From assembly GCA_043826565.1 (NCBI GenBank), contig JBDRPX010000003.1, forward strand, positions 81,293-145,292: a stretch of DNA of 64,000 nt. The letters are read 5' to 3'. This DNA comes from Candidatus Omnitrophota bacterium (lineage in GTDB: Bacteria; Omnitrophota; Gorgyraeia; B26-G9). How positions within the stretch are numbered: the stretch's first letter is position 1; each line of letters opens with the position of its first letter. Below, piece after piece: positions 1 through 64,000 of the stretch. Below the pieces are notes generated by a model that had not been told where the DNA came from, did not search any database, and saw nothing but the letters and a program-made list of their open reading frames with translations. The position numbers and the translations under genes are program-made.

Positions 1-1
1 T

Positions 2-3000
2 AAAAATAATGATTTACCGGGGATAATCTATGAGAACTTGCAGCAAGGCAGTCTTTTATTACAGAATTCTCCCAACAGTAATTTAATTCGGGCTTTGCGG
101 GTTGAGGTGAATAATTGTGAAGAGTTTTTTGATCCGAATCGCTACAAGATTTTTAATACCGCAATACACATATTTGAAGATAAACAGGAACAGGATGAAT
201 TTAGGGCTGAAAAGAATAAACAGCTGCTTTGCTTAAGACAATTAGAAGAAGGCAATTTACGTTTGTCTTTTGAAGACAATTCGGTGCATTTATTTTGGAA
301 AGGAGTTCAGCTTACGTCAAAGCAGGGTTTGCATACAGCGTTGATGTTAAATAATGAGTGGTTTGATTCTAGTAAATGTGAATGGAAAGTTGAGAGGATT
401 AACGATCAGTGTATATATATTAATATAGATTGGCGTCCTTTGCCGATAAAACAGACCTGGCAGGTGAATTTGATAAACGGCTATTCGTTTAGATGGCAGG
501 TTATTAATCATTTGAAAGATAACCGGGATGATCTGGTTAAGATTAAGACCTTGGGAGTGGTACTGCGTGCGGATTATCAAAAGTGGTTTGGCGGATATGA
601 GACTGGGGATTTCCCGAATAGTTTTGACCGCTGGCAGGAAATGATCAGTGATGTGCCGGATGGCGCGGTAGGAGTAAAACAATGTGCGGCATATCCGGCG
701 GTTATGCTTAAAAACGTTGCCGATAATCGCGCTGGGCTTATTGTTCAGAACGGCGATAATACTTCCGGATCCCGTCATTTGCAGGCTGTACAGGATGAGA
801 ATGATGGTAATTTCGCGCAGGAAATTTCAATTATCGAAGATGCTCAACAGGTAGATGACTATGTCCAGAAGCGAATGAATAATGAGATCATGCGTAATGG
901 TATCGGAATGGAACATTTGAAACTGCTTGCAGATAAGCAGAAGATCCGGGTCTTTTGGCAGGAGAAAGAACTAACTACGGATATCGGTTTGCATACGGCA
1001 ATACATTCTAGCGGATGCTGGTATGATTCCGGGAAAATGAAATGGCTGGTAAAAAAAATCACGGAAAAAAATCTGCAGATAACCGTGGATTTTAGTCCTT
1101 TTCCGGCGGTGCAGGTGTGGGATCTTTCGCTCGAGGGTAAAGATACTATAGATTGGGATGTTGAAATGGAGCTGAAAAATCCGGTGGAAATCGAAGAGCG
1201 TAAGGCCGGGATTATCCTGAATGGTGAATATACCCGCTGGTTTAATTCTTTCGAAGAGGGGATGTTTCCTGAAAAATTTGGTTTTTGGCACGATATCGTA
1301 CGTAATCGGGATGGGGAAACTTTCGGGACATATCCGCATAAAGATTTGCCGGGAGTTATGTTTTCCATCGATGCGAGCCATTTATCTCTTATCCAGAATG
1401 CTGATGAAAATATTAAAGGCAGAGTTTTGCAGGCGCAGATAGTCGAGGCAGAACAGACAAAGCAATATCCCGCCAAAAAGTTCTCTTGTTTTAAAGGGAA
1501 AATTAAGTTAGTAAAGGACGAAGGGGATATCGCGATATATAAACAAAACGCGCATCCGTTATTAGCCAAAGCAGAGGCTGTGTACATATATGGAGATTCT
1601 GCTGGTCTGCATGACCGGATTACCGGGGTTAAGGAATTTGATAAAAAGATTGAAATAATTGATGAGCTAAGAACTAAGGGGCAGGAGGTCCGGGTCGCGA
1701 TCGGCGTATCCCGCTACAATTTTTTTAAGCTTAACGAGATCGGACAGTTTGTGGCGGATAAGCTGGGGTATCCCCTAGATATGCGTTCGGTGCAGCTAAA
1801 TATATTTCCGTTAAAGAGACTGCGGAGAAATTTTATTGAATATTTAGATGAGTTAAAAAAATTACTTGGACAAATAGGGAATGTGGAATTGGTTCTTGCG
1901 GATAATGAACTGTTTGAATTGATCACTGCTGTTTGTTCTCAGGCGGATAGCGGGAATGAACGCCAATTACTGCGTTTGCTGGGGGTTATTAGTGAGCATG
2001 CGTTTATCGGCCCGCAGATTATTGTTATCGACCCCTTTCATCGCTGTAATGCCAACTGCGTGCATTGCTGGGTACATACTCCGGGAGTATTTCATCCGGA
2101 AGAGTTTTATGATATAAAACTAGATTTTGACCGGTTTAAATCAATTGCCGATGATCTGAGTGAGTTGCTGGTTGATCTGATCATCTTTCAAGGCGACGGA
2201 GAACCGTTATTGTATGATAAATTTTTTGATATGGTTCGATATGCCCGCAAAAAAGGCATCAAAGTGTCTTTTTTTACAAATGGGATTCTTCTGAATAAAG
2301 AGATTGCCAGGGAAGTTATTGATTTAGGGGTAGAGGAGATCTTTTGCAGTCTTCCGGCGGGAATTCCGGAGACGTTTGGAAAGATTAATACAAAACAAAA
2401 GCCGGAGATTTTAACGAAAATATTGGAAAATCTAAAATATCTTTCTGCTCTTAAGAAACAAGCCGGCAAAGAAAATCCCCGCTTGATCATGACTCATGTA
2501 ATTCATACGATGAATGCCCGAGAGCTTATGGCTATGGCTAAAAATGATATTGATATCGGGGCGGATATTGTTCGATTCTATCTTGTGCGCTTAGATGAAA
2601 ATATCGAATTCTTGAAATTAAAACCGGAAGATATAAAGGCAGTTCAGGATATTCTCCCTGAGATCAAAGAATTGTTTGAGAAAAATAATATTAAATTTCT
2701 TGATACAACCGAATTTCAATTGAATAATTTTGAGCAGGAAACCGGATCATGGTCTAAGAATGTATTTTTGGAAAATGGATGTACTTTGGGATGGAATTTC
2801 TGTTTAATCCCTGCTTCCGGAGAGGTTAGCTTTTGCTGTCACCTAAGAACGGTTGGTTTTTTGAATAAAAGTACATTTAAAGAGATATGGATTTCGCCGG
2901 AATATGACCGGTTTCGTTATCAGGCGAAGTTTTTAAATCAAAATAAAGATGCTAAGTTTCTTAACGGACATCCTTTGTTTGATGACTTCTGTGAGCATTG

Positions 3001-3079
3001 TGATACTCACCAGGTGATCAGGGATGTTTGGGATCAGTTTAAGCTTTATAATTTGGAAAGGTTTTTTCTTAAGAAATGA
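2..3079 (+). CDS. 5'-partial radical SAM/SPASM protein: two copies of a ~130-aa repeat domain N-terminal, rSAM core and C-terminal SPASM-like Cys cluster
   Basis: Frame is open to the window edge (ORF track starts at TTG 38, no upstream stop). CxxxCxxC motif 'HRCNANCVHC'. C-terminal 'CLIPASGEVSFCCH...DDFCEHCD' Cys cluster. Two internal repeats (~258-640 and ~940-1300) with conserved 'L(R)L.F....V.LFW...LT...GLHTA....W(Y/F)DS...W'. Confidence 0.7.
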   Translation, partial: KNNDLPGIIYENLQQGSLLLQNSPNSNLIRALRVEVNNCEEFFDPNRYKIFNTAIHIFEDKQEQDEFRAEKNKQLLCLRQLEEGNLRLSFEDNSVHLFWKGVQLTSKQGLHTALMLNNEWFDSSKCEWKVERINDQCIYINIDWRPLPIKQTWQVNLINGYSFRWQVINHLKDNRDDLVKIKTLGVVLRADYQKWFGGYETGDFPNSFDRWQEMISDVPDGAVGVKQCAAYPAVMLKNVADNRAGLIVQNGDNTSGSRHLQAVQDENDGNFAQEISIIEDAQQVDDYVQKRMNNEIMRNGIGMEHLKLLADKQKIRVFWQEKELTTDIGLHTAIHSSGCWYDSGKMKWLVKKITEKNLQITVDFSPFPAVQVWDLSLEGKDTIDWDVEMELKNPVEIEERKAGIILNGEYTRWFNSFEEGMFPEKFGFWHDIVRNRDGETFGTYPHKDLPGVMFSIDASHLSLIQNADENIKGRVLQAQIVEAEQTKQYPAKKFSCFKGKIKLVKDEGDIAIYKQNAHPLLAKAEAVYIYGDSAGLHDRITGVKEFDKKIEIIDELRTKGQEVRVAIGVSRYNFFKLNEIGQFVADKLGYPLDMRSVQLNIFPLKRLRRNFIEYLDELKKLLGQIGNVELVLADNELFELITAVCSQADSGNERQLLRLLGVISEHAFIGPQIIVIDPFHRCNANCVHCWVHTPGVFHPEEFYDIKLDFDRFKSIADDLSELLVDLIIFQGDGEPLLYDKFFDMVRYARKKGIKVSFFTNGILLNKEIAREVIDLGVEEIFCSLPAGIPETFGKINTKQKPEILTKILENLKYLSALKKQAGKENPRLIMTHVIHTMNARELMAMAKNDIDIGADIVRFYLVRLDENIEFLKLKPEDIKAVQDILPEIKELFEKNNIKFLDTTEFQLNNFEQETGSWSKNVFLENGCTLGWNFCLIPASGEVSFCCHLRTVGFLNKSTFKEIWISPEYDRFRYQAKFLNQNKDAKFLNGHPLFDDFCEHCDTHQVIRDVWDQFKLYNLERFFLKK
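258..640 (+). other. Copy 1 of unrecognised ~130-aa repeat domain (protein-level repeat)
   Basis: 'LRLSFEDNSVHLFWKGVQLTSKQGLHTALMLNNEWFDSSKCEWKVE...YQKWFGGYETGDFP' aligns with the three other copies at 940-1300, 5765-6130 and 7790-8160. Confidence 0.6.
940..1300 (+). other. Copy 2 of the repeat domain
   Basis: 'KIRVFWQEKELTTDIGLHTAIHSSGCWYDSGKMKWLVKK...YTRWFNSFEEGMFP'. Confidence 0.6.
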
Positions 3080-4062
3080 AGATTAAAATTGGCTGGCTAA
3101 AGAATAATACGAGATACAAACTTACTATAAAAGGAATCACACTGCTTTTTTTAAGCGGTGTTTTAGTCTCTTTTTTGATCGGTGAATTAATGGTGAGATT
3201 TTTTGTATCGTTTCCGATAAATAGAGAATATTTAAGGTTTGAATGTTTGGGGTATAAATTGATAAGTCAGAAGGCTAGAGATGCTCAGTTATTTTGGAAA
3301 CCGATTCCGGAATTTCGCGGCGAGTCATATCAGGAAAAAAAGGAAGACGGAGTTTTTCGGATCATTTGCATTGGAGATTCGGTAACGCAAAGTCATGGGA
3401 TAGACGGGTTCCCTCTGCCGAGGGAAAATACTTATGTTTTTTATTTGGAGAAGCTGTTAGAAAGTGGTTATGAAAATAAAAAATTTGAAGTGATTAATGC
3501 TGGGGTAGGAGGTTATAGCTCTTTACAGGGGGTGAGATATTTAGAAGGTAAATTGATCAAATATAACCCGGATTTAGTGATTAGCTGGTTTGGTATTAAT
3601 GACCGGGGACAGGCAGTATTTTATAATGATAAGCAACAGAAGCTGCCGCTTAAGGAAAGCTTAGAGAAAACAGGGGGAAGCAAATTATATAAATTTATAA
3701 AAAATTATTTTCTCATTATGCAGTATATGCCACGCGTATCTTACGGTGATTATTATGAAAATTGTGAGCAGATGCTGAAGTTATCTAAGAAAAATTATTT
3801 TGATATAGTATTTATTACTCCTTTTGAGGCTGATGTTCACGGCTCGTTAATATATTTAAATGATTATAAAGAAGCCTTGGAAAAACTAGCGGATAATTAT
3901 GATTCGACAGTATTAGATGTGCCCCCGTTTTTTAAATACAAGGCAAAGAATATGTTTATTGATTCTTGTCATCCGGACAAAGAAGGTAATACTGTTGTGG
4001 CCGAAACGATTTATACACTACTTAAAGAATCTGGTGTTTTTGATAAAATAAACTCCAATTGA
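3076..4062 (+). CDS. SGNH/GDSL-family hydrolase with N-terminal TM anchor
   Basis: Block I 'ICIGDSVTQS'. 'VINAGVGGYSS' (Gly block). C-terminal 'DSCHPDKEGNTVVAE' (DxxH catalytic block). ATGA overlap with upstream gene. Confidence 0.65.
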   Translation: MKIKIGWLKNNTRYKLTIKGITLLFLSGVLVSFLIGELMVRFFVSFPINREYLRFECLGYKLISQKARDAQLFWKPIPEFRGESYQEKKEDGVFRIICIGDSVTQSHGIDGFPLPRENTYVFYLEKLLESGYENKKFEVINAGVGGYSSLQGVRYLEGKLIKYNPDLVISWFGINDRGQAVFYNDKQQKLPLKESLEKTGGSKLYKFIKNYFLIMQYMPRVSYGDYYENCEQMLKLSKKNYFDIVFITPFEADVHGSLIYLNDYKEALEKLADNYDSTVLDVPPFFKYKAKNMFIDSCHPDKEGNTVVAETIYTLLKESGVFDKINSN

Positions 4063-4091
4063 TGCCCCAATGAACAAATAGGAAAATAAAG

Positions 4092-7000
4092 ATGAGAATA
4101 GTATTAGTAAATATACCGTGGAAAAAAGGAACCCGCTGGGGGGTCCGGGCCGGGTCCCGGTGGCCGCACATAAAGGACCGGACGGAAGATAATTATCTGG
4201 CTTTTCCGTTTTATTTGGCTTACGCCGCGGCTTTATTAAAGAAAAATAAATTTGAGGTGTTTATTATTGACGCAATTGCCGAACGGTTATCTTACAAAGA
4301 TTTTTTCCAAAAAGTAATTTCTTTAAAACCTGATTTACTTGTTGCCGAAACTTCGACTGTTTCTCTTAAGCATGACCTGAATTTTCTTTTGCGCTTAAAA
4401 GGCCTTGCCGAGGTTGCGATATGCGGGCCGGATGTGCACATCGCGGATCCCAAGTTTTTGCAGGAAACAAGTCAGGTTGACTATGTGCTTTTTGGCGAGT
4501 ATGAAGCTACCTTGCTGGAACTGGCGCAGACTTTAAGGGGGAACTATTGCAAAACGCCCATCTGCGGCGTTTCTTCCTCATTCGCTTGTGCGACGTCCGA
4601 CGAAAAGGACGCCTCCTCGCTCATTCGTCGAGGCCTTGCATCTGAACATTTTTCAATAGTCCCCGGAGACAGAAAATTGTTGGATAAAATTGACGGTCTG
4701 ATTTTTCGGGATAAAGGGAGGATTATTAAAAATAAGCCGCGTCCTTTAATTTCTGATCTTGATTGGCTTCCTTGGCCGATGCGCAAACAGCTTCCCATTA
4801 AACGTTATAATGATGCTCCGGGAGATATCCCGATTCCTTGTGCTTCGATGTGGGCCAGCCGGGGATGTCCGTTTAGGTGTTCTTTTTGCTTATGGCCGCA
4901 AGTAATGTATAACGGGAACAGCTATCGTACCAGAGATGTGAAGTCTGTTGTTGATGAGATGGAATATCTGATTAAGAAACTTGGCTTTAAATCAATTTAT
5001 TTTGATGATGATACGTGGAATATCGGAGAAGATCGGATTTACGCTTTTTGCGAAGAACTTAATAAAAGGGAATTGAATATCCCCTGGGCAATTATGGCCC
5101 GGGCCGAACTGATGGATGAAGCATTACTTGAAGCAATGCGTAAAGCAGGTTTATTTGCCGTTAAATACGGGATAGAGTCTTCTTCTCAGGAGATTTTGGA
5201 TAAGCTTGGCAAAGGTCTTGATCTGAAAAAAGCCGAAGAGGTAATTAAATACACAAAGTATTTAGGGATTAGAACGCATCTTACTTTTACATTCGGTTTG
5301 CCCGGAGAAACTCAACAATCAATACAAGATACAATCAATTATGCTCTTAAACTTAATCCTACATCAGTACAGTTTTCTATAGCCACTCCCTTTCCCGGAA
5401 CAAGGTTTTATGAAGAGATGGAAAAAAAAGGATACCTTTTAACCAAAGATCTGGAAAAATTTGACGGTAACCACAGCAGTGTGATCCGCACGGAGCATTT
5501 ATCAGGTAAACAGCTGCAAAAAGCTAAAAAAACAGCCTATGCCGAGTGGGATAAGCATTATCAATTGAAAAATAAAAAACTTTTTTTCAAGAATAAACCT
5601 TTAAAAGTAAAATTGATGAGTTCTTTAGTTGAACAGGGCGTGGTGCTTACGGCAATAAAAATTCTCAGATTTATAATCAGAAGAGTCTTTTTTTTTCCGT
5701 TACGGGTCAAACAGCTTTTTACCCGAAAGCTGTGGATTATTGAGGAGATTGTTGGGACAAGAGACTTAAGGCTTAAATTTGGAGAAGGCCGGGTTAAAGT
5801 TTTTTGGAAGGATAAAGAGATCAGTAAAGATGTCGGGTTGACGACTTCTTTACATTATGGGGATTGCTGGTTTGATTCAACCCAGGCGAATTGGAAGCTG
5901 GAAAAACAATCAGGGGATAAGATAAAAGTAAAATTAAAGTGGGACGAAGTCCCGGTCCGCCAGGAATGGGATATCGAGATTATTGAAGACCGGCAAATTA
6001 AGTGGGTAAGTACTCTGCAGGTGGAAAAAAGTGTGCAGTTACTTGAGTATAAGGCCGGGATAATGGTGTCGGATAGCTATACCAAGTGGAGAGATGATTT
6101 AGGAATTGGTAAATTCCCAAAGATTTCCGGGTGGGAGGAAATTGAATTATATAACTCCAATAGTGCGGTTTTAAGAGTAATCGCGGATGAAGGCAAAGGC
6201 GGAAAAACGGATCTTCCAGAACTGGAAATGCGCTCAGCTTGTGATTTAGAAAATAATACTTATCCGCAGATACAAAATACCGATTGTAAGATAAATGCCA
6301 GAATATTGCAGATGCGGAAATTGAAGATCGCCCAATTTACCCCGGGAGATTATAAGTATTTTGATTTGGAAATTGTAATAGAGAATAAGCAATTGGTTCC
6401 TCAGACCATAGATAAGTATAAGAAAAGAGTGCCGCTTCAATTTATAAAGGAACAGATATCGGCGGGCGGATTCTTCCCGGTTTTAATGAAAATATTAAAG
6501 CACTTACATCCCCGGCGATTAAGTGATTATTATTTGGATATTATCGGGGTTCTTGACGGCAGTTACGCGTATAAAGGCCCGTCTTTTGTTCAGATAGACC
6601 TTACCAATGATTGTAATAATGATTGCATCGGATGTTGGTGTAATTCGCCGCTTTTAGGTGATAAAAAAATCGACGATACGGTTAAACGCCAGACATTACC
6701 ATTTGAAACTGTAAAAAAGACTATTGATGAGCTAGCGGGAATGGGAACGAAGGAGATTTATTTTGCCGGAGGCGGAGAGCCGTTTATGCATCCAGAGATA
6801 TTGCCTATTCTCGAACATGTGAAAAAACGGAGATTGGGTTGTTATATAAATACAAATTTTACCCTGGTTAATGAGGATGTTGTAAAACGGTTAGCCGAAT
6901 TGAAAGTGGATAATCTGATTGTAAGTGTCTGGGCGGGTACTCCGGAAACTTATTGCTTGACCCATCCGAATAAATCCGAAGGCATGTTTTATCAGATTAA

Positions 7001-10068: not shown

Positions 10069-10166
10069 ACAACAGAAGACAGAGGTCAGAATATGAAGAA
10101 TGAAATTTTTTATTATCTGTCATCTGTCATCTGTTTTCTGTCTTCAAACTTCTGTGGGGTACAGCA
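10069..10166 (+). repeat. Intergenic element: inverted repeat gaagacag...ctgtcttc flanking a 7-bp tandem repeat (tctgtNN x4); potential long RNA hairpin
   Basis: 'cagaagacagaggtcag...tctgtcatctgtcatctgttttctgtcttc'; gaagacag is the exact reverse complement of ctgtcttc. Confidence 0.6.
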
Positions 10167-10170
10167 ATGA
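10093..10170 (+). CDS. Candidate small ORF, 25 aa: MKNEIFYYLSSVICFLSSNFCGVQQ
   Basis: ATG preceded by GAGGT 6 nt upstream. Stop TGA overlaps the ATG of the next gene (ATGA coupling). 3 Cys, hydrophobic. Lies within the heptamer/hairpin element, so it may be non-coding. Confidence 0.3.
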   Translation: MKNEIFYYLSSVICFLSSNFCGVQQ

Positions 10171-16668: not shown

Positions 16669-16669
16669 T

Positions 16670-19407: not shown

Positions 19408-19432
19408 CTTTGTCTGCCGTAGGCAGACAAAG
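19408..19432 (+). terminator. Perfect 11-bp stem / 3-nt loop hairpin directly after the stop codon (no U-tract)
   Basis: ctttgtctgcc-gta-ggcagacaaag. Followed by 'gagtagagagtagc', which also occurs at 14147. Confidence 0.4.
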
Positions 19433-19472
19433 AGCAGCGAGTAGAGAGTAGCTAGAAAAGAGAAAAGCAGAG

Positions 19473-26652: not shown

Positions 26653-26673
26653 GGACAGGCCTTGTGCCTGTCC
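26653..26673 (+). terminator. Intergenic GC-rich hairpin (8-bp stem, 5-nt loop) directly after the stop
   Basis: ggacaggc-cttgt-gcctgtcc, flanked by a gggaca direct repeat. Confidence 0.35.
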
Positions 26674-26685
26674 GGGACAAAAATT

Positions 26686-39643: not shown

Positions 39644-39681
39644 TGGATGGAAAGAACGGCTGATTTTAAAAGGGGCATAAA

Positions 39682-49109: not shown

Positions 49110-49113
49110 AAAT

Positions 49114-54562: not shown

Positions 54563-54587
54563 TTAAACATGGAAAGTAAGGAGATTT

Positions 54588-55949: not shown

Positions 55950-55972
55950 TTGAATAAGGGAAGTTAGCTTTT

Positions 55973-57325
55973 ATGGAGAAAAAAATAATTCGTAAGACGA
56001 AAAGCCGGTGTCTTAAGTGCGGTTCGATTGTCCCGGCAGCGGTGATTGAAAAAGAAGGGAAAGTCTATCTTGAAAAAAAATGTCCGGAGCATAATTTTAC
56101 CAGTTTGCTTATTTCCGATAACTCCGATTTATATAGAGACCTGGAGAACTTTTATTTTTCAGTTATGCCTGATAACTTGAAATCATGGGCCAGAGAGATA
56201 GATCTTACTTTTCGCTGCAATATGAATTGCCCGATATGTGCTTGTGATCGTAAGTTTAGAGCTGCCAAGGCTTGTTTTGAACCAACAATAGAGGAAATTA
56301 AATATTTTTTAGAAAAAAGTAAAATCCCGGTATTTAAATTATCCGGAGGGGAACCTACTTGCCGGGAGGATTTGCTGGAAATTATCAGGTTAGTGAAAAG
56401 TTTCAAGAAAACCATTGTGATTAATACTAATGGTTTGAAGTTATCCGATCTTGAGTATGTGCGAAATTTAAAGCAAGCGGGTGTTGATAGTATCAATATG
56501 TCCTTCGATGGGTTTGATGAAAAAGTCGAGAAGTACTTTCGCGGGAAAAATTATCTGCCGGATAAAATAAGAGCTTTAAATAATTTAAGGCAACTGGATA
56601 TTCCGACTGGGTTGAATATTACGATTGCTAAAGGTATTAATGAAACAGAAATTCCTAAAATTATCGACTATGCCGCAAAAAATAAAAATATAAAAATGCT
56701 GAGTTTTGGAACATTCAGTTTTATGGGAAATGCCCGGAATTGGGATTTTAGCTGCTATCTTATGCCGGATCAGCTTAAAAATTTAATTGTTGAGAAGACA
56801 AATGGAAAAATTAGTCAGAATAGTATAAGGATATTTCAGAAGTTATTTATTGGAATGAATTCATTTTTTTTCCAGAAATTCTGCTTGTATGATTCCGGAT
56901 CAACGATAATATTTCGTGAAAAAGGTGATTATACGTCGTTAGATAGACATATAAACCTTAAACCGATAGAAAAACATCTTGATAAATATGCTCTAATTTT
57001 TAAATACAGTCCAATTTTAGCAAGAGCATTTTTGACTATCGTTGGAATTTTCAGCTTAAGGGAAATTAGGTCAGGGCTGCTGGCCAGGGAACTATTTTCA
57101 CGCGGAATAAGTTTTTTTAATAAAAACAGTAAGTATTTAAGGACAAAATCTCTTATATATATAAATATTAATACAATTTGTGATAATTATAAAATTGATT
57201 ACAAAATTGCGAAAAACTGTATGTATGGATTAGTGTTTAAGAGCAGCGACAATATATTGAAACTGAGAGGCACCGGCTCGGAGATTTGTGAAAAAATTTT
57301 AAATTCAGAAATTAGTGAATTTTAA
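55973..57325 (+). CDS. Zinc-ribbon + radical SAM protein, paralog 4 of 5
   Basis: First 45 aa nearly identical to paralog 3 ('RKTKSRCLKCGSIVPAAVIEKEGKVYLEKKCPEHNFTSLLISDN'). 'LTFRCNMNCPICAC'. Confidence 0.6.
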   Translation: MEKKIIRKTKSRCLKCGSIVPAAVIEKEGKVYLEKKCPEHNFTSLLISDNSDLYRDLENFYFSVMPDNLKSWAREIDLTFRCNMNCPICACDRKFRAAKACFEPTIEEIKYFLEKSKIPVFKLSGGEPTCREDLLEIIRLVKSFKKTIVINTNGLKLSDLEYVRNLKQAGVDSINMSFDGFDEKVEKYFRGKNYLPDKIRALNNLRQLDIPTGLNITIAKGINETEIPKIIDYAAKNKNIKMLSFGTFSFMGNARNWDFSCYLMPDQLKNLIVEKTNGKISQNSIRIFQKLFIGMNSFFFQKFCLYDSGSTIIFREKGDYTSLDRHINLKPIEKHLDKYALIFKYSPILARAFLTIVGIFSLREIRSGLLARELFSRGISFFNKNSKYLRTKSLIYININTICDNYKIDYKIAKNCMYGLVFKSSDNILKLRGTGSEICEKILNSEISEF

Positions 57326-57359
57326 ATTAGTTCTTATGCGGCTATAAAAGGAAAGAAAA

Positions 57360-58430
57360 ATGAAATCTCAAAAAAATAGGATTGAACATTCATTTCCGTG
57401 CATTGGAAAAGCAGAGCAATCGGGTATTCTTGCGGTAATTAAAAGCAGTTTTTTAGCAGAAGGTGCTCAGGTCGAGTGTTTTGAAAAGGAGATGTGTCGG
57501 TATATAGGGTGTGATTATGCTATCGCGGCCAGTACCGGGACTTCGGCCTTGCATCTGGCTCTTTTAGCTTTAGAAGTTGGCAAAGGGGATGAGGTGATTC
57601 TTCCTAATTATGTTTGCCGTTCGGTACTAAATGCTGTGCAGTATTGCCAAGCTACGCCGGTATTGTGTGATGTTCAAACGAAAACATACAATATTTCCCT
57701 GGATGAGGTTAAGGAAAAAGTCAATGGCCGGACAAAGGCAATTATTGTCGCGCATATGTTTGGTTGTCCTGTTCCGGTGGACAAATTGAGAATAAAAGGT
57801 ATTCCGATAATAGAAGATTGTGCGCAAAGCATTGGAGCGCAATACAAGGGGAAGAAGGTTGGCAGCTTAGGAGATATTGCAGTTTTTTCTTTTGAGGGAA
57901 CAAAAACTATTACTACCGGAGAGGGTGGAATGGTAGCGACAAGCTCTAAAAAACTTTGCAAAAAATTAAAATCCTTAAAAGAACCGTATGCGAATGATTG
58001 TATGCCCAAGTATACTTATCGGATGAGCAGTCTGCAAGCGGCGGTTGGCCGAATTCAATTAAAGAGGCTGCCGGGATTTATCAAAAAACGCCGCCAGATT
58101 GCGCGGCAATATGCTAAGGCATTTGCTTTAGATGGGGTAGAGCTTCCGGTTGCCCCTCAGGATATGATGCCTACTTTTCACCGGTTTATGCTGGATGTTA
58201 GAGAAATTAATATTGATTGTTTTTTACCGGCATGCTGGAAGAAGAAGGTTATGGTTAAGCGTCCGATAAAACCGTACCTGCTTAATCAGTATTTAGGTAT
58301 TTCAAGTAAATTATTTCCGAACTCAGAATATATTATGAAGCATTGCGTTTCTGTGCCGATATATCCGTCTTTAAAGAAAAATGAGGTTACAAGAATAATT
58401 AAAGTTGTTTGCGGAGAACTAAAAAAATAG
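57360..58430 (+). CDS. DegT/DnrJ/EryC1-family PLP-dependent aminotransferase
   Basis: 'DYAIAASTGTSALHLALLAL'. 'IIEDCAQSIGAQYKGKKVGSLGD'. 'FSFEGTKTITTGEGGMV' (PLP Lys). Confidence 0.75.
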   Translation: MKSQKNRIEHSFPCIGKAEQSGILAVIKSSFLAEGAQVECFEKEMCRYIGCDYAIAASTGTSALHLALLALEVGKGDEVILPNYVCRSVLNAVQYCQATPVLCDVQTKTYNISLDEVKEKVNGRTKAIIVAHMFGCPVPVDKLRIKGIPIIEDCAQSIGAQYKGKKVGSLGDIAVFSFEGTKTITTGEGGMVATSSKKLCKKLKSLKEPYANDCMPKYTYRMSSLQAAVGRIQLKRLPGFIKKRRQIARQYAKAFALDGVELPVAPQDMMPTFHRFMLDVREINIDCFLPACWKKKVMVKRPIKPYLLNQYLGISSKLFPNSEYIMKHCVSVPIYPSLKKNEVTRIIKVVCGELKK

Positions 58431-58431
58431 A

Positions 58432-59379
58432 ATGATGAAATACGGATTTCGTAATAAAAGAGAAGAATTATTTCCGCTGATGCTGGTGTTGGAAATAACC
58501 AATGTCTGCAATTACCGGTGTATACATTGTCCTTATCCGGAGATTTCGAAGCATAAGGACTATAAACCAAAATTCATGGATTGGACTGTTTACCAAAAGA
58601 TTGTTGATGAAACTGCCGGGTTTAAAGATACAATTTTCCGGTTTGTTTGTGATGGAGAGCCGATGATGCATCCTGATTTCTTGCGAATGGTAGAATATGT
58701 CAAAGTAAAAAATATTTCACCGGTATGTGTTACGACAAACGGTTATTTTCTTTCCGAATATGCGGCTAAGAAATTAATCGACTGCGGTTGTGATATTATT
58801 GAAGTGAGTCTTGATGCTCTATATAGAGAATCTTATGATCGGGTGAGGGCCGGTGGTGATTTTGATCGGGTTGTGGCCCAGACAAAACAATTAATCAAGA
58901 TAAGAGATACTTCTGCTAAGGATTTGAAAATTATGGTAAGTGCCATAGATCAGCCTTTAGCAGATGGTGAATTGGAAGCGTTTAAACAGTATTGGCAGGA
59001 AAAGGCAGACAAGGTAATTATCAGAAAGTTTACCAGCATTGGGGGGCTTGTGGATAGCAATGTGGAGAATGAACAAAGTTCCCAGGACGGGAAGAGATGG
59101 CCTTGTCCTTTGCTCTGGCGCAGGCTTTTCGTTAATGTTGACGGCTATGCAGAATTTTGTGTTGACGATTGGCTGGATGAGTCAATTATCGGGGATCTTA
59201 GGAGAGATGATATTTCCAGTATTTGGAAAAGTGACTTTTATCAAAATTTAAGAAATTTACATAACTCCGGATGCTTTGAAGAGGTAAAAAAATGTGCGGA
59301 ATGCTGTGACTGGACAGCACGGACTTGGGATTACGATTATTTTCACGCAATTAAAGAAATTTTTACGCCGAGTATTTAG
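58432..59379 (+). CDS. Radical SAM/SPASM protein
   Basis: 'LEITNVCNYRCIHCPYP'. 'CDGEPMMH'. C-terminal 'WPCPLLW...FCVDDW...CAECCD'. Confidence 0.8.
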   Translation: MMKYGFRNKREELFPLMLVLEITNVCNYRCIHCPYPEISKHKDYKPKFMDWTVYQKIVDETAGFKDTIFRFVCDGEPMMHPDFLRMVEYVKVKNISPVCVTTNGYFLSEYAAKKLIDCGCDIIEVSLDALYRESYDRVRAGGDFDRVVAQTKQLIKIRDTSAKDLKIMVSAIDQPLADGELEAFKQYWQEKADKVIIRKFTSIGGLVDSNVENEQSSQDGKRWPCPLLWRRLFVNVDGYAEFCVDDWLDESIIGDLRRDDISSIWKSDFYQNLRNLHNSGCFEEVKKCAECCDWTARTWDYDYFHAIKEIFTPSI

Positions 59380-59393
59380 GGAAGAAGTTTAAA

Positions 59394-60743
59394 ATGAAAA
59401 TTATAGATAGAACACTGGGGATGTGCCCGAAATGTATGGTTTGGGTAAAAAGTCAGGTTATTGATCGCGATGGGGAAGTTTTTTTGCAGAAAATTTGTCC
59501 GGAACACGGGATGACAGAAATGCTTTTGTGCAAAGACGCGGCACACTTTAGCAGCTTAAGGGATTTTTATTTTAAAACTCATAACAAAATATTTTCTCAA
59601 ACACGGTATCTTTGTTTTTTGACTCCCCAGTGCAATCTTTCCTGTCCGATATGTTTCCTTGATCCTCATTCCGGGCATAGACAAGATGTTAATATTGAAG
59701 ATCTGAGAGTGAAGTTAAAAGACAATAAGCAGGAGTTGATTTTATTTGGCGCTGAACCTGCTTGCCGGGATGATTTATTTGAAGTGATTGCTTATTTGCG
59801 AGAAAGGCAACACTCGGTCAGTTTTTATACAAACGGGATAAGATTAGCGGATTATCGTTACTGTGAAAAAATCAAGGAGGCAAAAATAGACAAGGTTTAT
59901 CTGCAGTTTGACGGATTTGATGATAAAGTATATGAGATTCTGCGGGGCAAGAAGCTTGTGGATATAAAATCAAAGGTTTTGGATAATTTAAAACAATTAA
60001 ACCTTCCGGTTGTTTTGGATGTTACTGTGGTCAAGGGACTGAATGATGATGAGGTAGGTAAAGTGTTTGATTTTTCTATGGCTAATGATTTTATTCGGGC
60101 GGTTAATCTTATCGCTTATGTGCGTTCCGGGGGCGGAGGCGATTATCTAAGTGAGTGTTCAACAATGCCTGATGATATTATTGAGTATATGTCTAAATAT
60201 ACGGGGGGGAGGATTTCCCGGGAAAAGATCAGGGTTTTTCAGAAGCTTTTATATGTTTATATGGCATTTTTAAAAAGAAGAACATGCTTTTATATTCAGT
60301 ATTTCTGGGTTTATCGATGCGCTGATGGTAAATATATAACTCTTAATGAGATCCTGGATTTTACTGTTTTGGAAAAAGTGTTAGACAGATATCTGTCAAT
60401 AGACATAAGGATGGGTAGACTGCTGGCGATATTGTACTTAAGTTTATCATTACCTCGCCTGATTTTTGCAGTGAAAAATATTCGTCTTTTTTTTGAATTG
60501 ATTAAGATGGCGTTTGCGCATAGCTTTAATAAAGGTGAGTACGCCAGTAAAAGCAGTAAATTTTTACAGTTAATTTTTACTACTGCCTGTGATCCGCATA
60601 AATCGGATATGAAAATTGTCGAACGCTGTCACGTCGGGATTATCTATAAAAATGGGCAGGGGAACCTTAATGTTGATGATGAGAACGGCAGATATTTATT
60701 AAATCAGGAAATACTTAGCAAGCAGAAAGCGGGAATAGTATAA
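59394..60743 (+). CDS. Zinc-ribbon + radical SAM protein, paralog 5 of 5
   Basis: 'RTLGMCPKCMVWV...QKICPEHG'. 'LTPQCNLSCPICFLD'. C-terminal conserved Cys 'RTCFY','TACDPH','ERCH'. Confidence 0.6.
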   Translation: MKIIDRTLGMCPKCMVWVKSQVIDRDGEVFLQKICPEHGMTEMLLCKDAAHFSSLRDFYFKTHNKIFSQTRYLCFLTPQCNLSCPICFLDPHSGHRQDVNIEDLRVKLKDNKQELILFGAEPACRDDLFEVIAYLRERQHSVSFYTNGIRLADYRYCEKIKEAKIDKVYLQFDGFDDKVYEILRGKKLVDIKSKVLDNLKQLNLPVVLDVTVVKGLNDDEVGKVFDFSMANDFIRAVNLIAYVRSGGGGDYLSECSTMPDDIIEYMSKYTGGRISREKIRVFQKLLYVYMAFLKRRTCFYIQYFWVYRCADGKYITLNEILDFTVLEKVLDRYLSIDIRMGRLLAILYLSLSLPRLIFAVKNIRLFFELIKMAFAHSFNKGEYASKSSKFLQLIFTTACDPHKSDMKIVERCHVGIIYKNGQGNLNVDDENGRYLLNQEILSKQKAGIV

Positions 60744-62323
60744 TGCGCGTTGGTTTTGTTTATTCCGAAATGGAAACTTTAGGGATCGAGCATTTGTCGA
60801 GTTTTCTTAAAAAGCAGGGGCATCAAACCCGGCTCTTTTTTGATCCGCAATTATTTATGGATACTATTTCCAGCCGTCCGGTACTTAATAAGATATTAGG
60901 ATATCGGGATCATTTACTTAAACAGATTGATGAATTCAAACCGGATATCCTCGCGTTTTCTGTGCTGAGTACTAATAATCATTGGGCAAAATTATTTGCT
61001 AAAGAGATAAAAATACATACGGATATTCCCATAGTATTCGGGGGGATACATCCTACTTTGGCTCCGGAGGAAGTTATTAAGCTTGGTTTTGTTGACCATG
61101 TTATTGTTGGCGAAGGGGAAGAAGCCTTATGCGAGCTTGTGGAAAATCTTAATAATCTCAAAAATCTTAGCGAGATTAAGAATGTCTGGACAAAAATCAA
61201 TGGCAAAATCGTCCGTAATCCGGTACGGCCGCTGATTGAAGATCTTGATTCGCTACCTTTCCCGGATAAGGAAATGTTTTATCAGGTCATGCCTTATTTA
61301 AGTAAACATTATACGATAGTTACCGGACGGGGGTGTCCGTATTCATGTACTTTTTGTTCAAACCACGCTTTACGGAATATAAGCAATAGTGATAAACATT
61401 TTTTAAGAAGAAGGTCTCCGGAGAATGTTATTGCCGAATTGAACCAAGCAAAAAGTAAGTACCAGGTAAAAGATATTTTCTTTGATGATAGTACTTTTAC
61501 CTATGATAAAAAATGGTTAAAACGTTTTTCGGACCTTTACCGCGGACATATTAATCTGAATTGTTTCTGCTGGGTGCATCCTTCAGAGATAGATGAGGAA
61601 ACAGTCGGATATCTTAAGAACATGAATTGCCGGGCCGTGGAAATGGGGGTGGAGAGCACGAACCCTCAAATCCGGGAAAAATGGCTGCATCGATATTACT
61701 CTAATGAGCAGGTTGCCCGGGCGCTGAGGTTATTTAAAAAACATAAGATTTTTTGCGTAGTTGATAATATTATCGGGTTGCCGGAAGAGAAAATATCCGA
61801 TTTAGAAGACATGGTAAGCTTTTACAATGAGATCAGGCCGGAAAAGGTTTATGTGTTTGAATTGCGTCCATTTCCTAATACTCAGATGTATGAGATGAGT
61901 AAAGAATATGCAGCTATTCATAATAATGACCGGGATGACCTTAGGCCGTTTACTTTGTCGGTATACCGGAACAAAGTTTTTAAACAAATTATAATGCTGA
62001 CGCTGATGATTGAGTTCCTGCCCAAAAAAGCCATAAGTTTTTTATTACGCAAAAAGCTGTACAGATTTTTGCCGGCATTTGACGTTTATAATTTTCTGGA
62101 AATAGTGCCTTTTTTTCTTAATTTTTTAAAAAGAGAAAAACGTTGGTTTCCTATTCGCGGAACAAGACACCGGTACATATTCTTCGGATTGAAAATTCTT
62201 AAAAACTATTTTTCTGGCAATTCCCCGGGGGAAGACTGTAAAAACAGTATTCCTTTAAAAGAAAATAGCGTTGATATTGTGTTGCCGGAGAAAACAAAAG
62301 AAGAGGTTCTGATTAATAACTGA
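60743..62323 (+). CDS. B12-binding-domain radical SAM protein
   Basis: 'LGIEHLSSFLKKQGHQTRLFFDPQLF'. 'IVTGRGCPYSCTFCSNH'. Confidence 0.8.
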   Translation: MRVGFVYSEMETLGIEHLSSFLKKQGHQTRLFFDPQLFMDTISSRPVLNKILGYRDHLLKQIDEFKPDILAFSVLSTNNHWAKLFAKEIKIHTDIPIVFGGIHPTLAPEEVIKLGFVDHVIVGEGEEALCELVENLNNLKNLSEIKNVWTKINGKIVRNPVRPLIEDLDSLPFPDKEMFYQVMPYLSKHYTIVTGRGCPYSCTFCSNHALRNISNSDKHFLRRRSPENVIAELNQAKSKYQVKDIFFDDSTFTYDKKWLKRFSDLYRGHINLNCFCWVHPSEIDEETVGYLKNMNCRAVEMGVESTNPQIREKWLHRYYSNEQVARALRLFKKHKIFCVVDNIIGLPEEKISDLEDMVSFYNEIRPEKVYVFELRPFPNTQMYEMSKEYAAIHNNDRDDLRPFTLSVYRNKVFKQIIMLTLMIEFLPKKAISFLLRKKLYRFLPAFDVYNFLEIVPFFLNFLKREKRWFPIRGTRHRYIFFGLKILKNYFSGNSPGEDCKNSIPLKENSVDIVLPEKTKEEVLINN

Positions 62324-63882
62324 TGAAGATTGCTTTTATAAATAATGCAAATGAAAGTTTGGGGATTGAATATCTCTCAGCTGCTTTAAAACAGCAGGGA
62401 CATCAGGTGAGAGTATTCATTGATCCGCAATTATTTAATGATGAAAATATAAGGTTTTCTGTGTTAGAAAAGATTTTTGACTATCGTTGGGAATTAGTCA
62501 AAGACGTGGTTGATTTTGCTCCGGATCTGATTGGATTTTCCGTGGTAAGTGATTTTTATAAATGGGCCTGCTCAGTAGCCGCTCAAATAAAATTCTGTTA
62601 TGAAAAACCAATTATATTCGGCGGTATCCATCCGACATCTTTACCGGAACAAGTGCTCAGAAATAATTTTGTGGACATGGTATGTGTCGGAGAAGGCGAA
62701 GCTGCCCTGGTAGAAGTTGTTGCGTGTCTAGAGCGGGGAGAATGGCCGGAAAAAATCGAAAATATCTGGACCAAAAAAAACGGTGCGATAATTAAAAATA
62801 AGGTAAGACCGTTAGTAAGTGACCTGAACTTGCTTCCGTATCCGGATAAGGAATTGTTTTATAAAGAGAGCCGGCATTATGAGAAAGGGTATTTTACAAT
62901 GGCGGCGCGCGGGTGTCTTTATGCCTGTTCATATTGTCACCATTCATATTTAAAAAAGATGTATAATGGCGCTTCGTACTATCGCTGCCGAAGCGTGGAA
63001 AATGTGATCAAAGAACTGGAAAGAAATTTTATCAGGCATAAACATAAAATTATTCGTTTTTCAGATGATATTTTTCCGTTTGAAAAGCAATGGCTGAGAG
63101 AGTTTGCTGCAAAATTCCCGAAACGGATCAATGCTCCGTATATCTGTTATCTGCATCCGCATACAACAGATCAAGAGACGGTGTCTTTGCTTAAAAAAAG
63201 CGGTTGTCGGGAAGTACAGCTGGGAGTACAGACGCTTTACGCGAATACCCAAAAAGAAATACTAAATCGCCATGTTGCCCAAAAAAGGTGGGAAGAACTT
63301 ATTTTGCTTTTAAGAAAATCAAAGATAAGGATCACTGCGGAAAATATTATTGGGATTCCGCATCAGAGTGAGGAGGAAATAAAAGATCTGGTCCGGTTTT
63401 ACTGTAAGAATAAAGTAGATAGAATACATGTTTTTTGGCTGAGATATTATCCCCGGACGAAAATCACCGAGCAGTTTAAACCGGAGCAGTTTGACGGACA
63501 GGGGCTGCAGACAAATACTTTTACGCAAGGAGGCGATGTTTATAGCAAGCAGTTAAGTAAATTGCGGGTATTATTCGTTTTGCTTAATTTTCTTCCGCCC
63601 GGAGTGATATATTTTATCCTTGAAAAGAAAATTTATAAATACACTTGGCCGGTTTCATTATTTCTGCTGGATTTAATATCGAATATTTTCAGCGGTTCTT
63701 ATGCGGATAAGATAACAAGACAAAGAGAATTTCAGCGTTATTTAATTTATATAAAAAGAAGTTTAGGAGCATATAATGAAAGAGTTTGGGGTTTCCTTAG
63801 TGATGCCTGTTTTAAACGAACAGGAGATCATTGCCGAGACCATCAGAATATTTTTAAAAGACTTATCCGGTCTTTTCGATAA
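62323..63882 (+). CDS. B12-binding-domain radical SAM protein (close paralog of 60743..62323)
   Basis: 'LGIEYLSAALKQQGHQVRVFIDPQLF'. 'TMAARGCLYACSYCHHS'. Confidence 0.8.
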   Translation: MKIAFINNANESLGIEYLSAALKQQGHQVRVFIDPQLFNDENIRFSVLEKIFDYRWELVKDVVDFAPDLIGFSVVSDFYKWACSVAAQIKFCYEKPIIFGGIHPTSLPEQVLRNNFVDMVCVGEGEAALVEVVACLERGEWPEKIENIWTKKNGAIIKNKVRPLVSDLNLLPYPDKELFYKESRHYEKGYFTMAARGCLYACSYCHHSYLKKMYNGASYYRCRSVENVIKELERNFIRHKHKIIRFSDDIFPFEKQWLREFAAKFPKRINAPYICYLHPHTTDQETVSLLKKSGCREVQLGVQTLYANTQKEILNRHVAQKRWEELILLLRKSKIRITAENIIGIPHQSEEEIKDLVRFYCKNKVDRIHVFWLRYYPRTKITEQFKPEQFDGQGLQTNTFTQGGDVYSKQLSKLRVLFVLLNFLPPGVIYFILEKKIYKYTWPVSLFLLDLISNIFSGSYADKITRQREFQRYLIYIKRSLGAYNERVWGFLSDACFKRTGDHCRDHQNIFKRLIRSFR

Positions 63883-64000
63883 ATATGAATTAATTATCGT
63901 AAATGACGCAAGTACGGATAAAACACAGTCTATTGTTGAGCAATTGGTCTCAGAATGCCCGGATAAGCTAAAACTGATAAATAACAGCCGGAATCTGGGA
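63776..64000 (+). CDS. 3'-partial GT2 polyprenyl-phosphate sugar synthase-like glycosyltransferase (runs off window end)
   Basis: Not in the ORF track (no stop within the window). My translation from ATG 63776: 'MKEFGVSLVMPVLNEQEII...YELIIVNDASTDKT...INNSRNLG', the classic DPM1/ArnC-type N-terminus. Confidence 0.6.
   Translation, partial: MKEFGVSLVMPVLNEQEIIAETIRIFLKDLSGLFDKYELIIVNDASTDKTQSIVEQLVSECPDKLKLINNSRNLG

Follow-up and report, generated by a model that had tools for sequence, protein, structure and literature searches.

What does a bacterium make with 21 radical S-adenosylmethionine (rSAM) genes set among glycosyltransferases? This question is raised by a stretch of 64,000 nucleotides (nt) from a Candidatus Omnitrophota bacterium (assembly GCA_043826565.1, contig JBDRPX010000003.1, positions 81,293 to 145,292 of the forward strand), the whole of which is referred to here as the window. 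The original prediction, made from the sequence, was that these genes interleave with a periplasmic glycosylation toolkit and that their product is an undescribed radical-tailored glycoconjugate, polysaccharide or lipid. Our analysis supports this proposal, through synteny with other genomes, a recurring domain that we call X, the sugar-acting relatives of several rSAM enzymes, the lack of any equivalog match and the absence of any publication on such a locus from our searches. We consider it probable that a lipid-linked glycan or glycolipid of the envelope is both built and decorated by the island, and that its main tailoring catalysts are rSAM enzymes. The proposal is based on gene content, synteny and two predicted folds, from which all catalytic assignments and biochemical steps are inferred.

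A regular-expression scan found the CxxxCxxC motif in 21 of the 47 translated open reading frames (ORFs), with 22 motifs in total, two of them in gene g3 (genes are numbered from left to right; Table 1). All 21 proteins exceeded the gathering score of the Pfam family PF04055 (29.5 bits), g3 with two stretches. The predicted 21 genes and 22 domains were thus recovered exactly, and the CxxxCxxC proteins are true members of the rSAM family. Motif-bearing ORFs accounted for 45% of those in the window, versus 1.8% in 1.22 Mb of unrelated loci, a background figure that leaves out the seeded gene of each locus (binomial P about 2e-24).

The three classes that had been proposed were also recovered in the proposed numbers. 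Eight proteins matched both PF02310 and PF04055 (g3, g4, g19, g23, g36, g40, g46 and g47), with PF02310 scores of 36.6 to 69 bits against a gathering score of 32.1. The label "B12" given to this class is a call at the level of the Pfam domain and not proof of cobalamin use; AprD4 has a B12-type domain, yet does not bind cobalamin (PMC12931638). Five proteins were zinc-ribbon rSAMs, combining PF23545 (Zn_ribbon_HMPTM) with PF04055 (g38, g39, g41, g42 and g45). The SPASM family PF13186 was matched by six domains (in g1, the C-terminal half of g3, g12, g24, g31 and g44), and g25, g28 and g37 had Cys-rich C-termini that did not match PF13186; the count of nine SPASM/twitch domains, one of them within the 1443-amino-acid (aa) protein g3, is therefore reasonable. 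The canonical two-cluster SPASM motif CX2CX5CX3C was found by regular expression in none of the 47 proteins, and the Cys patterns of this class look twitch-like or variant.

Of the 47 ORFs that lie completely within the window, 45 are on the + strand; a 48th begins just before its right end, and the coding fraction is 98%. Among the 42 same-strand junctions, 17 were overlapping and 34 were at 30 nt or less, in agreement with the predicted co-directional and coupled arrangement of rSAM and glycosylation genes. Eight GT-C-like glycosyltransferases were identified, six of the PMT_2 type (g7, g11, g14, g15, g17 and g26, with g7 just under the gathering score) and two of the YfhO type (g30 and g35), all with 9 to 12 predicted transmembrane (TM) segments. 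Pfam searches confirmed GT4 glycosyltransferases (two), two DegT aminotransferases, an AsnB protein, a carbamoyltransferase, a WbqC protein and SGNH hydrolases (two). Of the two GT2 enzymes proposed to make polyprenyl-phosphate sugars, g8 was clearly ArnC-like, with C-terminal TM segments, whereas g20 is a soluble GT2. A class-I methyltransferase (g13), a DUF362 protein (g21), a third GT2 gene cut by the window end and five secreted or TM-anchored proteins without a family were also present.

Two kinds of two-gene module occurred twice each: a TM-anchored periplasmic protein with a PMT_2 GT-C enzyme (g6 with g7, g10 with g11), and a DUF3108-like secreted protein with a YfhO-type GT-C enzyme (g29 with g30, g34 with g35; 40 to 41% identity). 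These duplications suggest that the GT-C enzymes may have dedicated periplasmic partner proteins. A resemblance of g6 and g10 to carbohydrate-binding modules was judged by eye only.

Blocks of the island were found in other loci (numbered L001 to L099 here), in assemblies whose guanine-plus-cytosine (GC) content ranged from 0.29 to 0.50. The right block, g32 to g47, was collinear in L001 at 47 to 67% aa identity and recurred in L006/L097, L081, L082 and L002. The left block, g1 to g13, was collinear in L084, L085, L087 and L096, and the middle block, g17 to g30, in L098. L099 was a permuted locus, with four zinc-ribbon rSAMs mixed with AsnB, WbqC, PMT_2, GT4 and GT2 genes; both L098 and L099 were located through AsnB homologues. 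On a single contig of an independent assembly (GCA_043814605.1, JBDRJV010000037), the g1 to g13 block (12-36 kb) and the zinc-ribbon/B12 array (52-74 kb) kept the strand and order of the window. The 45.6 kb sampled there held 21 rSAM genes, a 16-kb gap lying between the sampled parts; none of the AsnB homologues was located on this contig. Counting the window, six loci had all or nearly all of a sub-block made up of DegT, BtrN-like rSAM, zinc-ribbon rSAM, two B12 rSAMs and GT2. Large rSAM arrays were found only in Omnitrophota and unclassified metagenome assemblies. This synteny across several Omnitrophota assemblies indicates that the rSAM and glycosylation genes travel together. The island is real and conserved; it probably extends beyond both window ends, the window being its central part. 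From the synteny, four more SPASM rSAM genes, possibly together with Wzm/Wzt-X, would be expected upstream of g1, and a DegT gene and one more B12 rSAM gene downstream of the last GT2.

In L082 (13154-20999, on a 399-kb metagenome scaffold), the array ended with two GT2 genes and a Wzy_C/TPR protein gene and directly adjoined a division and cell-wall cluster (mraZ, rsmH, a penicillin-binding protein gene, murE and murF).

Domain X is a repeat of about 200 aa, present in two copies in each of g1 and g3. It had no Pfam match even at E = 5. Its predicted fold is a galactose-mutarotase-like supersandwich, as in aldose-1-epimerases and glycoside-hydrolase accessory domains (predicted local distance difference test, pLDDT, of 88). 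An exhaustive profile search yielded a family of 615 protein clusters at 50% identity, with 2 to 8 copies of X per protein, and every member named by NCBI was from Omnitrophota. Among the top 152 X proteins, 79 consisted of an N-terminal ABC ATPase followed by 3 to 5 copies of X, 15 were rSAM fusions and 9 were polytopic GT-C-like proteins with C-terminal X; in a Pfam sample of 35 X proteins, ABC_tran was found in 14, Radical_SAM in 9 and PMT_2 in 7. One X protein had been named by JGI as an [quoted passage not shown]. One of the 15 rSAM fusions (P0130; RKY36779.1, Candidatus Omnitrophota, 1856 aa) combined in one chain an ABC ATPase (Walker A at aa 61), five copies of X and a C-terminal rSAM domain (CxxxCxxC at aa 1513), so that an exporter ATPase and an rSAM enzyme are physically fused.

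In L090, a PF00953 initiating transferase, an FAD amine oxidase, a carbamoyltransferase, SxtJ, an ABC-2 permease (Wzm) and an ATPase-X protein directly precede homologues of g1 and g3. In L087, an ATPase-X gene and four SPASM rSAM genes precede the g1 homologue; four further SPASM rSAMs stand upstream of it in L085 and L096 as well, and the g1 homologues adjoin g3 homologues in L084, L085, L087 and L096. In L089 (642-4126) and L090 (12432-15922), g3 was split into two adjacent genes, one for B12-rSAM-X, of about 732 aa, and one for rSAM/SPASM-X, of about 431 aa, which indicates that the fusion in the window is lineage-specific and that its halves work together. Where a lipid-linked polysaccharide is completed in the cytoplasm and exported by Wzm/Wzt, the ATPase characteristically bears a glycan-recognition domain at its C-terminus (PMC9445017). 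The most economical reading is that X would recognise the glycan of the pathway, and that g1 and g3 would be rSAM enzymes targeted to that glycan.

L090 also contained two sulfatases and a phosphate-selective-type porin; with the initiating transferase, the FAD amine oxidase and the SxtJ-like protein, they lie at 815-5803 and 18268-22414 beside its rSAM genes, a neighbourhood which hints that the glycans of some lineages may be sulfated or otherwise modified.

The nearest solved relatives of several rSAM enzymes, namely BtrN, AprD4 and BlsE, modify sugars. BtrN was the best solved relative of both g44 and g31. The pair g43-g44 (DegT with BtrN-like rSAM) was adjacent in the window and in five other loci (L001, L002, L081, L082 and L097), at low identity to the BtrN system, and the PDB relatives of g43 were aminotransferases of a generic nucleotide-sugar or inosose type. 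Within the B12 class, the best equivalog score was that of g3 against HpnJ (259.5 bits, cutoff 577.6), the remaining scores, against HpnJ, BchE, HpnR, PhpK, ladderane-type and other models, being lower. HpnJ was the best NCBIfam match of g3, g19 and g23 (162 to 260 bits, cutoff 578). That of g4 was a RiPP C-methyltransferase subfamily (RiPP, a peptide synthesized ribosomally and modified post-translationally; 148 bits, cutoff 282), and g36, g46 and g47 matched best, below cutoff, a "lipid biosynthesis B12-binding/radical SAM" family.

The zinc-ribbon class had Tes and TrsS as its best NCBIfam matches, at 138 to 176 bits versus cutoffs of 450 (Tes, NF045702) and 490. An AlphaFold model of g42 (pLDDT 93) superposed over its full length on the tetraether lipid synthase GDGT-MAS (7tol/7tom) with a TM-score of 0.78 to 0.80, the next best structure scoring about 0.4. 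In an alignment of 45 zinc-ribbon sequences, C13, C16 and C37 were invariant and H40 nearly so, corresponding to the rubredoxin motif CX2CX20CX2H of GDGT-MAS (PMC9433317); the C-terminal residues C304, C403 and C416 were also invariant. The N-terminal auxiliary [4Fe-4S] cluster of GDGT-MAS (C73, C77, C80 and a His) was absent: the stretch that links zinc ribbon and rSAM motif has no conserved Cys, and about 20 residues are passed over here in the alignment to 7tol. A hydrophobic helical region at aa 330-390 was conserved. As the five zinc-ribbon rSAMs have this fold in common, a lipid moiety may also be modified. A neighbour-joining tree placed the paralogues in at least four orthogroups common to several genomes, together with some lineage-specific duplications; paralogues kept in this way are not redundant and seem to serve different roles.

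A tandem pair of longer zinc-ribbon rSAMs (about 505 to 520 aa) was also observed alone, in unrelated contexts, in L012 (9983-12998), L021 (9992-13010) and L070 (9983-13094), whose hosts are one Auribacterota, one unclassified bacterium and one further Omnitrophota.

Taken as a lipid-linked glycan pathway, the island would work as follows. Synthesis would begin with a WecA-type transferase, which would be encoded outside the window, as found in relatives; on the cytoplasmic side of the membrane, GT4 and GT2 enzymes (g5, g18, g20 and the GT2 at the window end) would then assemble the glycan on its polyprenyl carrier. Cytoplasmic tailoring would act on sugar precursors or on the lipid-linked glycan itself. 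BtrN-like rSAM dehydrogenases (g44 and g31) could form keto groups without oxygen, to be aminated by the DegT enzymes (g43 and g16), and the B12-domain rSAMs, with AprD4, HpnJ and BchE as nearest relatives, all below family cutoffs, may C-methylate or rearrange sugars. The other SPASM/twitch rSAMs might oxidise, epimerise or cross-link, while AsnB would amidate carboxylates, g9 would O-carbamoylate and g13 would methylate. Enzymes g1 and g3 are expected to dock on the glycan via their mutarotase-like X domains. The hydrophobic part of the substrate on which the five zinc-ribbon rSAMs could act, perhaps by C-C bond formation, would be either its tail (polyprenyl or acyl) or a sugar embedded in lipid. 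Export would proceed through a Wzm/Wzt ABC transporter whose ATPase carries 3 to 5 copies of X and is encoded beside the island in relatives. In the periplasm, the eight GT-C enzymes would add sugars from polyprenyl-phosphate-sugar donors made by g8, probably assisted by the secreted or TM-anchored partner proteins g6, g10, g29 and g34, and the SGNH enzymes g2 and g33 may edit O-acyl groups.

Several observations weigh against this pathway. SPASM rSAMs are most often peptide maturases, and PMT_2 enzymes can glycosylate proteins, which would allow for a protein as the acceptor. The window was found to lack an initiating transferase, a flippase, Wzm/Wzt and Wzy, which were seen only in related loci. 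X had no sequence-level match to any solved protein or to Pfam Wzt_C, the matches of g44 and g31 to BtrN are weak, and no rSAM of the window reached the curated cutoff of any NCBIfam equivalog, all scores being far below. Finally, of the enzymes with the zinc-ribbon fold, just one has been characterised, and its substrates are lipid tails, not sugars (PMC9433317).

A more specific form of the proposal, which we regard as possible but tentative, is that radical chemistry edits a lipid-linked polysaccharide after its completion, so that the process would be to glycans what RiPP maturation is to peptides. Here, the rSAM enzymes would dock through X, which would also be used by the export ATPase and periplasmic GT-C enzymes, and would introduce C-methyl and amino groups, C-C cross-links and centres that are epimerised or deoxygenated on sugar residues, while the enzymes with the GDGT-MAS fold would form C-C bonds in the lipid anchor.

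The zinc-ribbon enzymes also prompt a reading centred on lipids, in which the zinc-ribbon and B12 array on the right would remodel the hydrocarbon chains of membrane lipids or of a glycolipid anchor, by C-C coupling into membrane-spanning or cyclised chains and by methyl branching, and the sugar genes would only supply the head group. The full-length match of g42 to GDGT-MAS, the rubredoxin motif and three C-terminal Cys conserved in 45 family members, the hydrophobic helical region, the best matches to Tes and TrsS and those of g36, g46 and g47 to a lipid-biosynthesis family are all consistent with it, and Omnitrophota have been reported with other genes for membrane-spanning lipids (bioRxiv 10.1101/2023.10.20.563219; PMC11868695). 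However, the Tes scores stay far below cutoff and the auxiliary cluster of GDGT-MAS is missing. Pfam scans found no fatty-acid, isoprenoid, ether-lipid or glycerol-phosphate genes in the 64 kb. Moreover, the array always has DegT and the BtrN-like rSAM, ends in GT2 and is flanked by GT-C genes and WbqC. We therefore consider this reading unlikely, although better founded than the two that follow.

Maturation of a peptide or protein is less probable still. In this case, the rSAM enzymes would mature a ribosomal peptide or a surface protein, such as a giant Omnitrophota protein, which would then be O-glycosylated by the PMT_2 and YfhO enzymes. SPASM/twitch rSAMs and B12 rSAM C-methyltransferases are typical of RiPP maturation, g4 had a RiPP C-methyltransferase subfamily as its best match, PMT_2 is named after protein O-mannosyltransferases, and a list of Pfam families from giant Omnitrophota proteins includes rSAM domains (bioRxiv 10.64898/2026.06.07.730766). 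Against this, the dense coding of the window leaves only two sizeable gaps (198 and 280 nt), without a plausible precursor ORF, and no gene of the window had a Pfam match to a PqqD-like recognition domain, a leader peptidase or a RiPP exporter. The docking domain X has a carbohydrate-type fold and is common to Wzt-like ATPases, and the peptide-maturase models all scored far below cutoff. A RiPP cluster was set aside, as no precursor, recognition domain or peptidase was found in the window.

That the rSAM density is an artefact, from mis-assembly of unrelated contigs or recent local amplification of one rSAM gene, is hardly credible and was rejected on the sequence evidence: the window does derive from a metagenome-assembled genome (MAG) and does contain two opposite-strand genes at 41.5-44.6 kb, but the parts to the left and right of the strand switch at 41.5-44.9 kb agree in tetranucleotide composition (r = 0.98) and codon usage (r = 0.99), the same gene order occurs on one contig of the independent assembly, and paralogues within a class are 20 to 53% identical and fall in orthogroups common to several genomes, which argues against recent amplification. 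The GC content of the window was 0.35 to 0.42 and showed no break, so the chimera or GC break at this switch that the original prediction had raised was looked for and not seen, and the blocks are collinear elsewhere. The g42 protein was 100% identical to MFH2136980.1, encoded on a 206,323-bp contig of a Candidatus Omnitrophota MAG.

No glycan or lipid pathway known to us uses this many rSAM enzymes, a handful being the most in those described; full-text literature searches yielded no publication describing the island, the only related remarks being those cited above on rSAM domains in giant Omnitrophota proteins and on genes for membrane-spanning lipids. Among described systems, Wzm/Wzt O-antigen loci (PMC9445017) are similar in that GT4 and GT2 enzymes there, as proposed for the island, assemble a polyprenyl-linked glycan in the cytoplasm; aminotransferase, amidotransferase, carbamoyl and acyl tailoring are typical of them. 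The loci related to the island likewise have a WecA-type initiator and Wzm, and their g1 and g3 homologues adjoin a Wzt-like ATPase whose C-terminal repeats are putatively glycan-binding. Unlike in the O-antigen loci, the putative recognition domain, X, belongs to another, unannotated family, occurs in 2 to 8 copies and is also found on rSAM and GT-C enzymes, 45% of the genes of the island encode rSAMs, eight GT-C enzymes are present and the transporter genes lie outside the window.

The zinc-ribbon enzymes have in common with GDGT-MAS/Tes (PDB 7tol/7tom; PMC9433317) the full-length fold, an identical rubredoxin motif, the rSAM cluster motif and the C-terminal three-Cys site. They differ in their low identity (23 to 24%), scores far below the Tes cutoff, absent auxiliary cluster, five to six diverged paralogues per locus, bacterial host and glycan-gene context. 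In aminoglycoside biosynthesis, rSAM steps are carried out by BtrN, with the aminotransferase BtrS/BtrR, by AprD4 and by GenK/GenD1 (in part after PMC5461906 and PMC12931638). These enzymes act directly on sugars or cyclitols, a twitch rSAM dehydrogenase is paired with a DegT-family aminotransferase, and B12-domain rSAMs tailor sugars; g44 and g31 were closest to BtrN and g23 to AprD4, although the similarities are weak. Pfam scans of the window gave no match to the cyclitol/deoxy-scyllo-inosose-synthase family, and no resistance genes were found. Known aminoglycoside clusters contain at most about three rSAMs and are not known to have GT-C or Wzt machinery.

The hopanoid side-chain pathway comprises HpnH, HpnJ and HpnP/HpnR together with HpnI and HpnO. 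In it, as may hold for the island, a glycolipid is acted on jointly by a glycosyltransferase, an aminotransferase and several rSAMs, some of which have a B12 domain, and HpnJ is the best match of three of our proteins; however, these matches stay below half the HpnJ cutoff, neither a squalene-hopene cyclase nor an HpnH equivalog was found, and the scale of the island is far larger. Periplasmic glycosylation is represented by the Arn pathway (ArnB/C/T) and three-component systems (GtrB/CsbB with a GT-C/YfhO enzyme). The island similarly has DegT, the ArnC-like GT2 with C-terminal TM segments (g8) and PMT_2 and YfhO GT-C enzymes. It differs in having eight GT-C paralogues and not one, in the partner proteins of its GT-C enzymes (DUF3108-like and secreted for each YfhO-type enzyme, TM-anchored and periplasmic for two of the PMT_2 type), and in that a Pfam scan of every window ORF of at least 150 aa gave no match to a GtrA/ArnE-F-type flippase family. 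Proteusins come from rSAM-rich RiPP clusters, in which, as proposed for the island, many rSAM tailoring enzymes act on one polymer and dock through a dedicated recognition domain; in the island, by contrast, the docking domain is of a carbohydrate type and no precursor peptide or peptidase was found. Overall, the locus is most likely a surface-glycan locus with rSAM-dominated tailoring, a new family of recognition domains (X) and an expanded bacterial branch of the GDGT-MAS fold.

The features of the window are listed in Table 1. An Rfam scan of the window returned zero families at gathering thresholds, and hence neither a cobalamin nor a SAM riboswitch; at 41.3-45.0 kb, scans for promoters and terminators gave a signal no better than shuffled sequence. 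GC skew was positive across the window, ranging from +0.12 to +0.27 in 2-kb bins with its minimum at the two minus-strand genes, and the G-over-C bias of the coding strand is unusually strong. The called TTG starts of g16 and g37 overlap the preceding gene by 65 nt (22869-22933) and 53 nt (49057-49109), respectively, and the true starts may lie downstream. The best NCBIfam match of g13, whose neighbours include many B12-domain enzymes, was the corrinoid-protein-associated methyltransferase CpaM, at 41 bits versus a cutoff of 180, too weak to interpret.

Table 1. Features of the 64-kb window from left to right, with predicted products and the matches on which they are based (positions in nt; TM, transmembrane segments).
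Feature	Position	Strand	Predicted product	Evidence and remarks
g1	38-3079	+	X-X-rSAM/SPASM protein, 1013 aa	Two N-terminal mutarotase-like X domains (aa 44-257, 286-494); PF04055 and PF13186 at aa 666-967
X domains of g1	128-1567		X	aa 44-494
g2	3076-4062	+	SGNH/GDSL hydrolase, probably an exported O-acyl esterase or transferase	PF13472; N-terminal TM/signal (one TM, aa 21)
g3	4092-8423	+	Fusion of B12-rSAM, X, rSAM/SPASM and X, 1443 aa	PF02310, two PF04055 stretches, PF13186
First X domain of g3	5742-6386		X	aa 551-765
Second X domain of g3	7776-8414		X	aa 1229-1441
g4	8416-10068	+	B12-domain rSAM	PF02310, PF04055
g5	10167-11321	+	GT4	PF00534, PF13439
Module g6+g7	11347-13225		Periplasmic protein and PMT_2 GT-C	
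g6	11347-12138	+	TM-anchored periplasmic protein	No Pfam match; one N-terminal TM; 29% identical to paralogue g10
g7	12122-13225	+	GT-C (PMT_2-like)	PF13231, 25.1 bits (gathering score 26.1); 9 TM; 32% identical to g11
g8	13219-14166	+	ArnC/GtrB-like GT2, polyprenyl-phosphate sugar synthase	PF00535; NF007986, 236 bits over full length (cutoff 529); C-terminal TMs
g9	14233-15909	+	NodU/CmcH-type carbamoyltransferase	PF02543, PF16861
Module g10+g11	15913-18355		Periplasmic protein and PMT_2 GT-C	
g10	15913-16668	+	TM-anchored periplasmic protein	Paralogue of g6; homologue upstream of a GT-C gene in L087
g11	16670-18355	+	GT-C (PMT_2)	PF13231; 9 TM
g12	18352-19407	+	rSAM/SPASM	PF04055, PF13186; orthologues in L087 and L096
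g13	19473-20021	+	Class-I SAM methyltransferase	PF08241
g14	20011-21426	+	GT-C (PMT_2)	PF13231; 12 TM
g15	21392-22933	+	GT-C (PMT_2)	PF13231; 10 TM
g16	22869-24146	+	DegT/DnrJ/EryC1 sugar aminotransferase	PF01041
g17	24137-25549	+	GT-C (PMT_2)	PF13231; 12 TM
g18	25549-26652	+	GT4	PF00534
g19	26662-28152	+	B12-domain rSAM	Best NCBIfam match HpnJ, below cutoff
g20	28143-29024	+	Soluble GT2	PF00535; no TM
g21	29037-30137	+	DUF362 protein	PF04015; same position kept in L098
g22	30220-30771	+	Small secreted protein without family	No Pfam match; N-terminal signal/TM
g23	30783-32183	+	B12-domain-type rSAM	AprD4, which dehydrates sugar diols, is the nearest solved relative (PDB 6fd2, E = 7e-23)
g24	32180-33163	+	rSAM/SPASM	Nearest PDB relatives SkfB, PqqE and BlsE
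g25	33178-34215	+	rSAM	PF04055; Cys-rich, twitch-like C-terminus
g26	34222-35790	+	GT-C (PMT_2)	PF13231; 10 TM
g27	35813-37717	+	AsnB-type glutamine amidotransferase	PF00733, PF13537; TIGR03108, 478 bits, below cutoff
g28	37734-38741	+	rSAM	Cys-rich C-terminus
Module g29+g30	38795-41511		DUF3108-like protein and YfhO-type GT-C	
g29	38795-39643	+	Secreted protein	Faint DUF3108 similarity; 40% identical to paralogue g34
g30	39682-41511	+	YfhO-type GT-C	PF09586; 10 TM
g31	41542-42558	-	rSAM/SPASM, BtrN-like	PF13186, 68 bits; BtrN (4m7t), E = 1e-14
g32	42757-43464	+	WbqC family	PF08889, 263 bits; orthologue heads the array in L001
g33	43472-44584	-	SGNH/GDSL hydrolase	N-terminal TM
Module g34+g35	44865-47583		DUF3108-like protein and YfhO-type GT-C	
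g34	44865-45734	+	Secreted DUF3108-like protein	Partner of g35; orthologue in L001
g35	45727-47583	+	YfhO-type GT-C	No Pfam match; 41% identical to g30 over 589 aa; 10 TM; orthologue in L001
g36	47580-49109	+	B12-domain rSAM	
g37	49057-50178	+	rSAM	Cys-rich C-terminus
g38	50197-51534	+	Zinc-ribbon rSAM, GDGT-MAS/Tes fold	PF23545, PF04055; orthogroup with an L001 gene
g39	51584-52951	+	Zinc-ribbon rSAM	
g40	52982-54562	+	B12-domain rSAM	Best NCBIfam match BchE, below cutoff; conserved more than any other array gene (82% identity to the L006 homologue)
g41	54588-55949	+	Zinc-ribbon rSAM	53% identical paralogue of g42
g42	55973-57325	+	Zinc-ribbon rSAM	7tol, E = 9e-42; AlphaFold2 model, see text
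g43	57360-58430	+	DegT sugar aminotransferase	PF01041, 285 bits; always paired with g44
g44	58432-59379	+	rSAM/SPASM, BtrN-like	Best PDB match BtrN, E = 2e-10
g45	59394-60743	+	Zinc-ribbon rSAM	Orthogroup with conserved position
g46	60743-62323	+	B12-domain rSAM	Nearest PDB relatives TsrM and AprD4
g47	62323-63882	+	B12-domain rSAM	
GT2 gene start, cut by window end	63884-64000	+	GT2	PF00535; GT2 at the same position in L081, L082 and L097

If the island acts as proposed, it would represent large-scale radical-SAM tailoring of a bacterial surface glycan or glycolipid under anoxia, where oxygen-dependent tailoring is impossible. Known carbohydrate-acting rSAMs are only a handful (e.g., BtrN, AprD4, GenK, BlsE and DesII), and many rSAM subfamilies with carbohydrate substrates would be added to them. 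The unannotated X family, with its 615 clusters, links exporter ATPases, rSAMs and GT-C enzymes, and offers a testable handle on the substrate; should radical editing of a finished polysaccharide hold true, the envelope polymer would belong to a new class, and rSAMs would be targeted to their substrate in a new way. The occurrence of the GDGT-MAS fold in a non-archaeal, non-tetraether context calls for caution where its homologues are used as lipid-biomarker genes. For the Omnitrophota, which are uncultured and often ultra-small, an elaborate and variable surface polymer could bear on cell-cell interactions and on phage/host recognition.

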